Part shown: positions 10,908 to 25,886 of the stretch, piece after piece
How positions within the stretch are numbered: position 1 is the stretch's first letter
How the letters are laid out: every line of letters begins with the position of its first letter
Program-made: the position numbers and the translations under genes
Notes under the pieces: generated by a model
The model's database searches: none
What the model was told of the DNA's origin: nothing
What the model saw: only the letters and a program-made list of their open reading frames with translations
Origin: Octopus sinensis
Lineage: Eukaryota
NCBI RefSeq assembly: GCF_006345805.1
Contig: NW_021835614.1
Location: 1-26,361, forward strand
Reading direction: 5' to 3'
Length of the DNA: 26,361 nucleotides

Positions 10908-10967
10908 CTGCACTGACGATTAGAAAGTGGATTATGTACAATAACTATGAAATCACATGATTTGCGG
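10908..10967 (+). ncRNA. Type I hammerhead ribozyme
   Basis: CUGCA CUGACGA U UAG..UUAU-guaca-AUAA CUA U GAAA UCA ca UGA UU UGCGG: intact core and all three stems can form. Predicted cleavage after AUU at 10962. Confidence 0.65.
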
Positions 10968-13566: not shown

Positions 13567-14104
13567 ACCCAGGAAGATTTTTACTACATAATCCACTCAC
13601 CTGTCTTTGTCATAAGTCAATTACTTTCTCTCCCGTCGCCATTTCTCTCTCCTTTCCGTCCGAGGAATATTGTAAGAACAATCAAATATTTACTTTACTT
13701 CTGCGTTACTTCTATGCATAACTGTCCCTTGGTCTGTTCCGTGTATTTCAGTTGTAATACCATAATATAGATTTTTTTCTTTCGTCCTTCGTATATTTGT
13801 TGTCCGCCCGATGTCATCTGACTCTATGTACATAGTGTTCCGTGTTTTGTTTCATTTTTTTCTTCTGCTGAAATATCTGAATCCATTTTTCATATCCTTT
13901 CCTGTCGCCCTGTTCTTACTACATTATTCATTAGCAACATTTTTTCTTCCATCTGCTGACATTACTGAATAGCAATGATCTTGTAAGGTGGCAAAATCAC
14001 CACTATCTCGAAAACGGCAGATGATAAACGTTGACTTCTTTCCTTGATCATTTCCTGTTGGATTTGAGTCCCATAAAGCTTACGATCATGAGACCGTGGG
14101 TTCG

Positions 14105-14778
14105 GTTTTCGGACCAGGTTACCCATTGTGCCTTTGTGTTTCAACTAGGCGACCCCTTGTGTCCTTGTGTTCCGACCAAGTGACGCATTGTGTCATTGCT
14201 TTTGAACCGGGCGACCCATTGTGTCCTTGCATTCGGAGCAGGCGATCCATTGTGTCCTTGCGTTTGGAGCAGGCGACCCATTGTGTCATTGCGTTCGGAC
14301 CAGGGGACTCATTGTGTCCTTGCGTTCGGACCAGGGGACCCATTGTGTCCTTGCGTTCGGACCAGGGGACCCATTGTGTCCTTGCATTTGAACCGGGTGA
14401 CCCATTGTTTCCTTGCATTCGGACCAGGGGACCCATTGTGTCCTTGCGTTCGGAGCAGGCGACCCATTGTGTCCTTGCGTTTGGAGCAGGCGACCCATTG
14501 TGTCCTTGCGTTCGGACCAGACGACTCATTGTGTCCTTGCGTTCGGACCAGGGGACTCATTGTGTCCTTGCGTTCGGACCAGGGGACCCATTGTGTCCTT
14601 GCGTTCGGACCAGGGGACCCATTGTGTCCTTGCGTTCGGACCAGGGGATCCATTGTGTCCTTGCGTTTGGAGCAGGCGACCTATTGTGTCCTTGCGTTCG
14701 GAGCAGGCGACCCATTGTGTCCTTGCATTTGGAGCAGGTGACCCATTGTGTCCTTGCGTTTGGAGCAGGCGACCCATT
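14105..14778. repeat. GC-rich 31-bp minisatellite, about 22 units
   Basis: Unit CCCATTGTGTCCTTGCGTTCGGACCAGGGGA with variants ...GGAGCAGGCGA and 30-bp ...TGAACCGGGYGA. Most degenerate at the left edge. Confidence 0.95.
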
Positions 14779-15218
14779 ATTGTCAAAATGAGTACAAGGC
14801 GAATGTTGGTGCAACCCTCTCTTCTTCCATCTGTTACATTCTCAGTGTTTCGCTGTGTCATGTATGACAGGATCAAGAATATCGACCCGTGGCTACATAG
14901 GCACCCAAAACAATTACCGGAAGCACAGTACAAGTTACAAAGTCATACTCGCTTGCGAGTGACAGCTGTGATTGGTTTGTGATTGGTTTGGTTTGTTTAT
15001 GTTGTTCAAATATATTTTACTGGCCACTGATTATTTCTCTTAGATTTTCGTTCAAATTATGTAAATTACCTACGCCACAAATGTGTTCTAGTCCCTTTTG
15101 TATAAGTCTAAGTCCCAAGGTTACTGCAGATATGTTTGAGCAACTGTGCTGACGATGGCTATTGAGCTAGAAACACGTTTCCACTACTGTCCTCTTATCT
15201 CCAGAGCAGAAGCCTCTA

Positions 15219-23324: not shown

Positions 23325-23448
23325 AATGTCTGCTAAATACTAAATATTCTCATTATAAAAATCAATAAATAATTTGAATGTATAATTTCAGATTTAAATA
23401 GATTTTAATGATTATAGGGGTGTCTATTTACTTCCGTCATGTCTGTAT
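23325..23448 (+). mobile_element. 3' terminal fragment of a related Tc1 element
   Basis: ATGTCTGCTAAATACTAA (MSAKY*, compare MSTKY*) and right TIR GGTGTCTATTTACTTCCGTCATGTCTG followed by TA. Confidence 0.75.
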
Positions 23449-23453
23449 ATACG

Positions 23454-24726
23454 CAGATATGCAGGAAGTAAATAGACACCTTTAATTTTCAAAATTTTCA
23501 AAATTTCTGATCTAATATGTTTTCAGCGGTGTAGAATTTACAATGCAATTTTCCTTTTTCATTCCAGGTGCCATTATATTAAATATTTGCGAAGAGTAAC
23601 CATGCCATGCACAAAATATTCAGCAGAACTGTCAGATTTTCAAATCGGTCAATTTGTTGGGCAATCTGAAGCTAGTCTTAGCCAGCGAAAAATTGCCGAA
23701 TATGTTCAATTTCCTCTTGCTACTGTTAATAGAATTATAGTGTAGTTCAAAAGCTAAGGAAAAGAATCAACAGATTCTCGTCACGGCCGACCTGGGCCCT
23801 CGGAAAGGAAGCTTTGCCGTTTGAAGAAAATTGTGGAAAACGAACCCTGTTCGAAGGCTTCTGACATTGCAAAACAGCTGGAAGTTAGTCCAAGAACATG
23901 TGTTATATATCTGCATAAGCTTGGGTATTATGGACGAGCAGCTAGAAGAAAACTCCTTTTTCAACCAATTAATATCATGAAAAGAAAGAAATGGGCTAAG
24001 GAGACGTCAGAAGCATCCACTTCATTTTGGGATAGAGAGATTTTCTCAGATGGATCCTTATTTGCATTATTTTCAGACAGTGGATGTTTTTGGGTCTGGA
24101 GGCTTCCCAATCAAGAATTTGATTTGAAGCGACTCCAACCAACTGTGAAACATGGCGGCATCTCTGTAATGGTATGGGGAGCTGTCACCAGCAATGGTCG
24201 TTCTGAGCTGATCGAATGTGTTGGGACCATAAACTCTGAAAAATACATCGAAATATTTAAGCAAGGACTACTTCCGATGTATTCACACGATAACATAACG
24301 AAGAATGAGTTGTTATTAATGCAAGATGGGGCTCCATGGCACACAGCGAAAAGGAATCAACAATGGCTGAATGAAAATGGAATCAAAAAGCTTCATTAGC
24401 CGAGCCAATCTCCTGACATGAACCCAATTGAAAATCTTTGGAGCATACTAGATAGAGCTATACGAAAAACTCGACAGAAACCTAAATCTAAAGATGAATT
24501 ACTTCGATTGTTGCGTGAAAAGTGGGTAGAAATTCCCCAAGAGACCATCACAAAGCTCATCAGTTCAATGCCAAAAAGAGTTTCTGAATTAAAAACTACA
24601 AAGAGAATGTCAACTAAATACTAAAGCATGTAGTCTTACCTATCGATTATATTTCAACTGTTCGCTTTGCGTAATAAATAAAGGATTTTGAAAATTAAAG
24701 GTGTTTATTTACTTCTTGCATGTCTG
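23454..24726 (+). mobile_element. Full-length Tc1 DNA transposon
   Basis: ~42-bp TIRs CAGATATGCAGGAAGTAAATAGACACCTTTAATTTTCAAAAT / ATTTTGAAAATTAAAGGTGTTTATTTACTTCTTGCATGTCTG. The expected TA flanks are mutated. Confidence 0.93.
23602..24624 (+). pseudogene. Tc1 DD34E transposase pseudogene (340 codons, no frameshift, 3 nonsense codons)
   Basis: Motifs [31 protein letters not shown] and SPDMNPIENLW, with 34 residues between the second D and E. Stops at 23743, 23755 and 24397. Confidence 0.93.
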
Positions 24727-25189
24727 TGCACATATATTCATACAAATGTACTCCACCCAGACAATAAGATCTTCCTTATGATGATCTTACATTGATGGGA
24801 ATGTAAACTGTATATGAATGTATGTATTTATGCCTTATCAGTCATATTATCTCTATTTGCACCCTTGTCACTTTATATGCATATTGCCACACCACATCAC
24901 ACCACCCCACACCATTCCACACACACTAGCACTGACTACTTCCCAGATCCCACTCCACACACCTTCATCTGTACACCCACACACCATCATTCACACAACC
25001 ACACATTACAGACACACACACTGACACACGCACACATTCACACGTCAAAGTCACTAGCTCCTATCTACATACACACACACACAGCCTTCGTTTTGGGATC
25101 ACCAATACTTCATAATCTCCCCTTCTTTCTACCTCTCCTGTCAAACTTTTTTCCCAACCAGTCGCCATGCTTGATCACTAAATGTACAA

Positions 25190-25353
25190 GCTTTTTTTAT
25201 TCTCTCCCTGTTTATTTTCTCTTATTCTTTTGTATTGAAGAGCGTAATCTCGAAGCGTAAAATACTTTCTCACTTTTCCGAGCGTCAAACTAACACACCT
25301 GCTTGTTGTTCATACACCTGTCTTCGTCTTTTGCTTTTCTGTAAATTTAAGCC
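25190..25353 (+). mobile_element. Penelope-like 3' remnant with a decayed hammerhead
   Basis: GAAGAGCGTAATCTCGAAGCGTAAAA aligns with the reverse complement of 22768-22940 and ends at (TA)n. Confidence 0.55.
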
Positions 25354-25614
25354 ATATATATATATATATATATATATACAAAAATTATTAGGGAATATTA
25401 CTTCCATGTACACAGGAAAAAGTCATTCAAATTAGATGTATTAAAACGAACATCTCTCAGTGTTTAATTCGTATATATAAAAGTAATCTTAGAGACAGAA
25501 CCACATTCAACTCAATCAAAACTGAAAAGTTTTATACTCACCATTCCATAAAATGTTAAAAATTAAATCTCATACTAACTATATCTATTCTGAATCCTGT
25601 ATTTTCCGTTTATA

Positions 25615-25714
25615 AGACTACACGTGTTTCATGAAAGTACGTCGGTATTGATTAGATACGAGGTATCTAGTTTTAATACTTACTCGGGTCAACATACTCC
25701 CAATCTTCAGGTCT
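25615..25714 (-). ncRNA. Type I hammerhead ribozyme with a long stem II insertion
   Basis: RC: AGAC CUGAAGA U UGGGAGUAUGUUG...UAGAUAC cuc GUAUCUA...CGACGUACUUUCA U GAAA CACGUG UA GUCU. Confidence 0.7.
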
Positions 25715-25886
25715 GGATTCCTCAACATTTTTCACTACCCCTATCTCTTATATACTTCCATGATACTCTATATCTTCAATATAATATTACTTAACATGAA
25801 CAAATGAATAGAAATGCAAATAATAAATAAAACTAATAACTTAATATTAAAAATTTAAGGAGTAACGCTTCTCCCGGGCCATCTCC

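Follow-up and report, generated by a model that had tools for sequence, protein, structure and literature searches.

The hammerhead motif

The window (the whole stretch of DNA analysed, 26,361 nt) is an entire 26-kb contig of microsatellite-rich animal DNA from Octopus sinensis, and carries a type I hammerhead motif on the minus strand at 25714-25615 (Table 1). An earlier note, made from the letters alone, had listed a core, cleavage triplet, stems, palindrome and hairpin for this site, and all of these parts were recovered at the minus-strand coordinates it gave. The motif combines a CUGANGA and GAAA core with an NUH triplet, and three stems surround the core with stem I open: stem I is 4 bp and covaries, and stem III is either 2 bp or an 8-bp duplex in the dimer. 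The base of stem II is a U-U, a natural variant of G10.1-C11.1 that is counted as tolerated for hammerhead membership. Stem II, hereafter the arm, spans 73 nt and consists of a 13-bp helix (P2a), a 10-nt loop, a 5-bp helix (P2b), an A-rich bulge and a 7-bp hairpin (P2c). The 13-bp helix forms only on the minus strand, as had been proposed, the plus-strand fold being without it. In families A and A2 only (see below), GGAUUC at 25597-25592 is able to pair with GAAUCC at 25720-25715, lengthening stem I.

Table 1. Coordinates of the hammerhead motif and its element in the window
Feature	Position	Strand	Remarks
Family A Penelope-like element, 3' end (3' UTR / pLTR)	25384..25865	-	480 bp, 5'-truncated; homology ends at 25865 and at about 25383
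Stem I, 5' strand AGAC	25711..25714	-	Pairs with GUCU 25618-25615
Catalytic core CUGAAGA (C3-A9)	25704..25710	-	N7 is A/U/C across families
U10.1	25703	-	Faces U11.1 at 25631, giving the U-U at the stem II base
P2a, 5' strand	25690..25702	-	13 bp with 25644-25632, four G-U pairs; 25691 is a private C>U
One-sided internal loop, 10 nt	25680..25689	-	CCG 25687-25685, predicted pairing partner CGG 25608-25606 (post hoc)
P2b, 5' strand	25673..25679	-	Partner 25651-25645; 7 bp in the family, here 5 bp (GUAUU/AAUAC) through G>A at 25674
Terminal hairpin P2c	25653..25669	-	25669-25663 / 25659-25653, UAGAUAC/GUAUCUA; A-rich bulge before the hairpin
P2a, 3' strand	25632..25644	-	From the fold and cross-family pairing
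GAAA core (25630-25627) and palindromic stem III ACACGUGU	25620..25630	-	Stem III of dimer type
A17 (25619) and stem I 3' strand GUCU	25615..25619	-	Predicted cut 25619/25618
3' tail	25592..25614	-	17-nt bulge containing CGG 25608-25606, then GGAUUC 25597-25592
Inner fixed 3' end of family A	25472	-	Lies ~90 nt short of the outer end, as in the 'tail' of PLEs
(TA)n at the 3' junction	25354..25378		Preferred Hydra target

The arm is the minimum-energy fold of its sequence (-19.7 kcal/mol, z -2.83), and 2 of 200 shuffles fold equally well. The minimum-energy fold of the whole motif (z -1.2 to -1.3) is without stems I and III, and the pair probability of stem I in the predicted ensemble of the window copy is ~0.01. 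Stem I measures 4 bp in families A and A2, 3 bp in B, D and E and 2 bp in C; with 2-4 bp that are rarely formed in the ensemble, the fold appears to need help. Stem III is unstable as a monomer hairpin (2 bp, +2.4 kcal/mol) and favourable as a self-duplex (-10.3 kcal/mol), which points to cleavage as a dimer, as described for other PLE hammerheads in the available text of PMC4209133 and in review (PMC6765202).

By themselves, the two core boxes at this spacing are not significant in the window (3 matches vs 1.47 expected, reached in 19 of 100 shuffles). Core boxes plus palindrome match once, and in none of 100 shuffles, with a pattern taken from the site itself. What supports the motif is thus its palindrome, its helices and its family. 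In an Rfam scan of the window, none of the 105 matches at E<=1 was to a hammerhead family, the matches being microsatellite noise.

Two further motifs of this kind were noticed on the plus strand. The earlier note had likened the U-U base to one at 10908; a U-U is indeed present there, but the plus-strand motif starts at 10914 (10914-10963), belongs to another repeat family (best 40 of 394 candidates scored) and has a 29-nt stem II. Its stem III is a longer palindrome and its stem I 5-6 bp, and this copy at 10914 is mutated in both stems. At 15142-15188 lies a short, degraded hammerhead-like motif whose 14-nt stem II region resembles the short class of the genome. Elsewhere in the window, a 31-bp minisatellite with raised GC occupies 14015-14872, and about 23400-24750 (plus strand) holds a transposase remnant with inverted-repeat-like ends, whose frame at 23758-24399 we take to be a Tc1/mariner-like transposase.

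The host element

A repeat search with the element, in which the best 40 of 425 candidates were scored, listed 45 matches that are 85-94% identical (family A). Other copies reach further upstream, so the window copy is 5'-truncated; tblastn found no PLE protein in the window, where the element has no coding remnant. Longer copies run upstream, on the strand of the hammerhead, into a GIY-YIG domain (~1 kb away in families A and D) and then a reverse transcriptase (RT). The order RT, then C-terminal GIY-YIG, was seen on that strand in L052, L053, L056 and L057, all copies examined being broken. In L056, from the sister family D, two same-strand motifs 3,780 nt apart flank the RT and endonuclease (EN). 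Protein matches associate families A, D and F with PLEs, and C and E weakly; there are none for B, and A2 is tied in by DNA homology (L054). Pfam searches with five PLE frame pieces and three homologues gave nothing significant.

The proteins nevertheless carry recognisable motifs. DKT replaces DKG (SDKT in L052, L053 and L056), the linker CxCX5C is present in L019, L051 and L056, CxxC and CKH (CxH) lie round E and N, and no CCHH motif occurs between GIY and YIG. The N-terminal motif is RLKWK in L053 vs RWK in Hydra, with RWR and RWK in the homologues P0001 and P0002 (Argonauta), respectively. Taken together, the DKT and CxCX5C motifs, with RLKWK as a candidate counterpart of RWK, the absent CCHH and the (TA)n targets fit a host in the Hydra clade of PLEs, as far as sequence motifs can place it. 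According to the available parts of PMC8557442, this clade has the same DKT and CxCX5C motifs and includes an octopus member. Assignment to Nematis or Neptune was dropped, since the linker is CxCX5C instead of CX2-5CxxC and the CCHH motif is absent. A non-LTR retrozyme, which the available text of bioRxiv 10.64898/2026.07.22.740005 describes as non-coding tandem monomers with a hammerhead in each, was likewise rejected, because family A continues into a coding PLE and its copies are dispersed and 5'-truncated.

The ends of the element are also those of a PLE. Ten of the 45 listed matches, including four of five short inverted arms, stop at the inner fixed end, and the others mostly near 25384; loose ends at 25472 also occur in two DNA-like runs. 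Short inverted arms with two fixed 3' ends are a PLE signature in the available text of PMC8557442 and PMC11167929, although the ~90 nt between the ends exceeds the 30-40 bp PLE tail given in PMC8557442. Neither fixed end coincides with the motif: they lie further downstream, by ~150 and 235 nt. We thus find pLTR repeats (the two-motif case being L056), inverted 5' arms and a 3' tail, as in EN+ PLEs. As with the (TA)n run at the window copy, the 3' flanks of other copies are microsatellites. Next to the (TA)n, on its 3' side, begins another repeat (25180-25350, minus strand), which is found after the element in L018 as well.

Conservation of the arm across six families

To sample related motifs, the 2.7-Gb genome to which the contig belongs was searched with a pattern comprising the core, the U-U followed by U-A, the palindrome and a spacer of 66-94 nt. 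There were 232 matches, as against none in the reversed control. Of these, 100 were listed. Loci L001-L168 yielded 109 motifs, and the analysis retained 76 different arms, 66-75 nt long, in families A (34), A2 (9), B (12), C (8), D (8) and E (5); left out were family F, two unrelated singles, an 83-nt foldback, a 63-nt deletion, two mis-parsed rows and duplicates. The six families are 48-81% identical in the arm, which is 68-73 nt long. When the majority sequence of each family was folded alone, A, B, C, D and E gave the same three-helix rod. The A2 majority folds differently beyond P2a (A2 copies have a mean z of -0.75), and the family D alignment fold is without the distal helices.

The earlier note had named covariation among copies as a check, and the stems are indeed kept across families, with paired mutations in each helix of the arm. 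At the level of families, 119 of 126 pair cells are paired vs 96.0 in shuffles (reached in 0 of 20,000), with double changes in every helix; the six families are related (two groups) and the distal anchors were hand-set, so such shuffle fractions are not probabilities. P2a has 67 of 72 cells paired (shuffles 50.6) and double changes in 8 of 13 columns, P2b 29 of 30 (24.5) and P2c 23 of 24 (20.8). The distal helices alone reach 52 of 54 vs 45.3 in shuffles, in hand-set registers that were corrected once; with misplaced anchors (P2b in C, D and E; P2c in A2) the counts are 23/30 and 22/24, not above shuffles. The core of P2c is AGA/UCU in five families and AAA/UUU in the sixth.

A structure-free alignment of 52 rows (14 family A rows and the other families' rows in range) gave a more independent view of the proximal part. 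Here pairing reaches 88.3% over stem I, the six arm pairs nearest the core and stem III, as against 35.7-54.5% when slid. For those six arm pairs alone it is 92.6%; A-U/G-C swaps occur in 20 rows and G-C/U-A swaps in 24. The stem I pair next to the core is C-G in all 52 rows, and the second covaries as A-U/G-C/U-A. A model trained on families C and E found the window copy as its single strong match at 33.9 bits, vs 23.1 for a sequence-only model and 26.9 for a control whose structure was shifted by one column. It aligned only P2a in the window copy, skipping the distal helices, and over 57 loci placed 14 family A loci at 30-37 bits. When sequence-only alignments were pooled, RNAalifold detected none of the arm in B+C+E and only nine P2a pairs in C+E. 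The search pattern itself accounts for part of the invariance of the core, but relatives found without it (L054, L056) keep the core boxes too.

P2a is therefore firmly supported, and P2b and P2c well but less independently so. Helices that stay paired across divergent families through double changes argue that the arm was selected in active lineages; from comparison of the sequences, the arm is a predicted three-helix rod kept by compensatory change across related families.

Decay of the window copy

Within family A the picture is different. Arm substitution rates are similar at paired (0.052) and unpaired (0.065) positions, and pairs were broken 63 of 96 times. Substitutions in the family A arm thus reflect drift once copies had inserted, whereas it was in the active lineages that selection acted. 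The four G-U pairs and the GUAUU/AAUAC helix described in the earlier note are present in the window copy, but the fourth G-U and the shortened helix are its private decay: 25691 and 25674 are private substitutions, also found in public contigs, where the family has a C-G pair and a 7-bp helix. The contig holds no same-family partner, so that this is a solo copy, and one that is likely inert.

Long and short arms in the genome

Among motifs with the same palindrome, long arms are the rule in this genome, with ~4,500 motifs against 138 short ones, a ~30-fold excess. Besides the U-U matches above, we counted 3,611 motifs with spacers of 33-63 nt (control 7) and 723 with spacers of 62-91 nt not starting with U (control 4), vs only 138 with spacers of 6-32 nt (control 6); the spacer ranges of this census overlap slightly. 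The other long arms (55-77 nt) are of unrelated sequence and layout and mostly start with G; a GIY-YIG frame also accompanies family F, at least. Their lack of kinship fits a tolerated insertion site as well as it fits a single function.

Family F (G000, e.g. L139-L168) has a 55-nt arm with G10.1-C11.1 and runs to thousands of motifs that are almost identical. These lie ~640 nt downstream of the GIY-YIG frame, often as inverted pairs, and are apparently young. In a further long-armed family (L174-L176, L180) the terminal loop grows by (CUA)n or U-rich expansion, from 62 to ~80 nt. Metagenome matches (73 loci) were treated as chance: the four with both stems are one sequence in the opposite-strand frame, with no PLE protein nearby.

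Comparison with published hammerheads

The comparisons below extend to the parts of the cited sources available to us. Hydra-clade hammerheads (PMC8557442) are likewise of type I, on the sense strand near the 3' end and in elements with (TA)n targets. In the Hydra rows of its File S2, 14 of 26 have the U-U base, 10 of these followed by U-A as here, and stem III is near-palindromic (ACAC-A-GUGU in two), whereas the palindrome here has no central nucleotide. The U-U base is known from PMC3088659 to support cleavage. It is not new, being in print for the Hydra rows and a known tolerated variant; the difference is in arm length. Published Hydra stem II plus loop is a simple hairpin of <=26 nt, compared with 68-73 nt and three helices here, so that the window arm is roughly threefold longer than in the published relatives compared. 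The element is also longer than the typical <3 kb of Hydra (3.8 kb between the motifs of L056, ~1 kb of 3' UTR) and has RLKWK for RWK. The earlier note had passed over the Hydra-clade host, the U-U as a common Hydra state, the decay of the arm and the majority of long arms among the genome's same-palindrome motifs.

Metazoan PLE pLTR hammerheads (PMC4209133) share the short stem I, palindromic stem III and dimer logic. They too are mostly solo truncated copies, with opposite-strand pairs 100-700 bp apart, but keep G10.1-C11.1 with an extra 5' base and a helix II of <=8 bp, unlike the window motif. The pseudoknotted and U10.1-U11.1 hammerheads of PMC3088659 combine a natural U-U base with a commonly base-paired contact between stems I and II; their stem II is often very short, whereas the contact proposed below would involve an internal loop 13 bp out. 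Anolis Poseidon (PMC11167929) likewise has a pLTR hammerhead and two fixed 3' ends (the 'tail'), which are two reverse-transcription start sites. It differs in clade, in an ORF that begins in stem II and in having demonstrated, protein-dependent cleavage, the present work being sequence analysis.

The nearest published case of a long arm is PLE-X1_sMoe of spike moss (PMC8557442 File S2), with ~53 nt of stem II plus loop, marked as deviating. It is an EN-less plant element of another clade with a 9-bp stem and a 35-nt loop, for which the available files report no three-helix arm. The proposal that length-limited searches would miss the window motif holds for Rfam and for the published limits that we checked: the minimal descriptor of PMC4209133 (Fig. 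S7) admits a stem II of <=7 bp with a 10-nt loop and cannot match this arm, and the core search of PMC8557442 a spacer of 7-17 nt. Legible rows of PMC4209133 Fig. S3 show short stem II hairpins. None of the papers listed in our literature searches describes a stem II that is both long and structured for Hydra-clade PLEs, although a paper on dimer-cleaving PLE variants may have long stems II.

Discussion

We consider it probable that the window holds a truncated and decaying Hydra-clade PLE hammerhead, whose 68-73 nt arm, maintained by compensatory change, likely steadies and gates a weak ribozyme that would cut only as a dimer. The anatomy, host element, cross-family covariation and within-family decay are observations; from them we infer the functional steps that follow. 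Where copies are in tandem or arranged as pLTR-ORF-pLTR, two palindromic stems III would pair and cut the precursor to unit length, and the motif would likely be a slow cutter that acts as a pair. The cut site is read through in most insertion templates, which suggests that templates are uncut or religated and that cutting is slow, regulated or followed by religation. Breaks in family F show no excess at the predicted cut, with about 20 vs about 36 at a single control site (at the cut, 16 in the best 30 of 38 matches; at control +10, 10 flagged in 30 of 216, being 5 true breaks and 5 small indels). At one family A locus (L194, G000:C8:94417983) an inverted arm is joined at the predicted cut to within one base, in one of three matches and with no baseline for that count. 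Family A also has two loci that at first looked like tandems; both are rearranged, and the pattern matched no intact pair of motifs in them.

There are two candidates for the help that the fold needs. The first internal loop may dock on the single-stranded tail 9-14 nt after the cut, replacing the contact between loops I and II, a possibility that we hold only tentatively. Post hoc, a 3-4-bp match between arm loop and tail was seen in five of six families (CCG/CGG, UCUA/UGGA, CAUA/UAUG, AAGG/CUUU, AAG/UUU); family B has none, and family C only A-U/A-U/G-U. The own-family pairing was equalled by 2/720 and 5/720 permutations, in windows chosen after inspection and with few contrasts. The protein of the element would be the other candidate helper, by analogy with the anole element, whose hammerhead cuts only with its protein according to the available text of PMC11167929. 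That the distal A-rich bulge and AGA/UCU hairpin serve as a handle for the RT-endonuclease is a proposal we find plausible, if not quite probable. The full combination, in which octopod Hydra-clade PLEs would have evolved a new hammerhead architecture that is a protein-gated switch, with the internal loop, 13 bp from the core, pairing to the 3' tail to replace the lost contact and the distal bulge-hairpin binding the RT, strikes us as unlikely.

A ribozyme that is active, but whose long arm has no task of its own, would account for part of these data: stem II would be a tolerated insertion site, kept as a rod to avoid misfolding of the core. In its favour, the arms of other families (55-77 nt) are unrelated and differ in layout, and the loop of one of them contains a simple repeat that is expanding; published Hydra hammerheads have arms of <=26 nt (PMC8557442), and covariation is strongest in the helix next to the core. 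It does not readily explain why the number of helices, the 9-11 nt spacing between P2b and P2c, and AGA/UCU with GU/AC stay fixed while sequence identity drops to ~50%, nor why long arms are so much commoner (~30-fold) than short ones among same-palindrome motifs, and we give it a minor share of the probability. We are more sceptical of a motif that no longer cuts in these lineages, its fold and arm being kept as a recognition or packaging signal on the RNA for the element's protein. In favour of this reading, stem I has dwindled to 2-3 bp in families B to E and breaks are not in excess at the cut; moreover, the available text of PMC11167929 reports anole hammerhead mutants without effect on insertion in vitro, and that of PMC8557442 Naiads thriving without canonical motifs. 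Against such loss stand the persistence of the core letters, the NUH triplet with A or U as H, the closing C-G pair (all 52 rows) and the covarying second stem I pair, the core boxes of L054 and L056, found independently of the pattern, and the fixed 3' ends well downstream of the motif. Least credible is an arm that makes the ribozyme competent as a monomer and leaves the palindrome as a relic. The possible loop-tail pairing and the distal stem I extension in A and A2 would suit it, but the 2-bp stem III hairpin at +2.4 kcal/mol and a perfect 8-nt palindrome common to ~4,600 motifs (selected by pattern) speak against it.

The window copy is itself an ordinary decayed insertion. Because the published descriptors that we checked overlook motifs by the thousand in a single genome, PLE ribozymes may be undercounted, and reports that they are absent may be affected in the same way. 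PLE hammerheads are poor cutters in vitro, and one tested case is protein-dependent. With an arm of 70 nt that is conserved and has compensatory variants occurring naturally in six families, constructs are at hand for separating gating by a tertiary contact from gating by a protein. If the protein-gated switch is true, it would time the processing or circularisation of the retrotransposon RNA.
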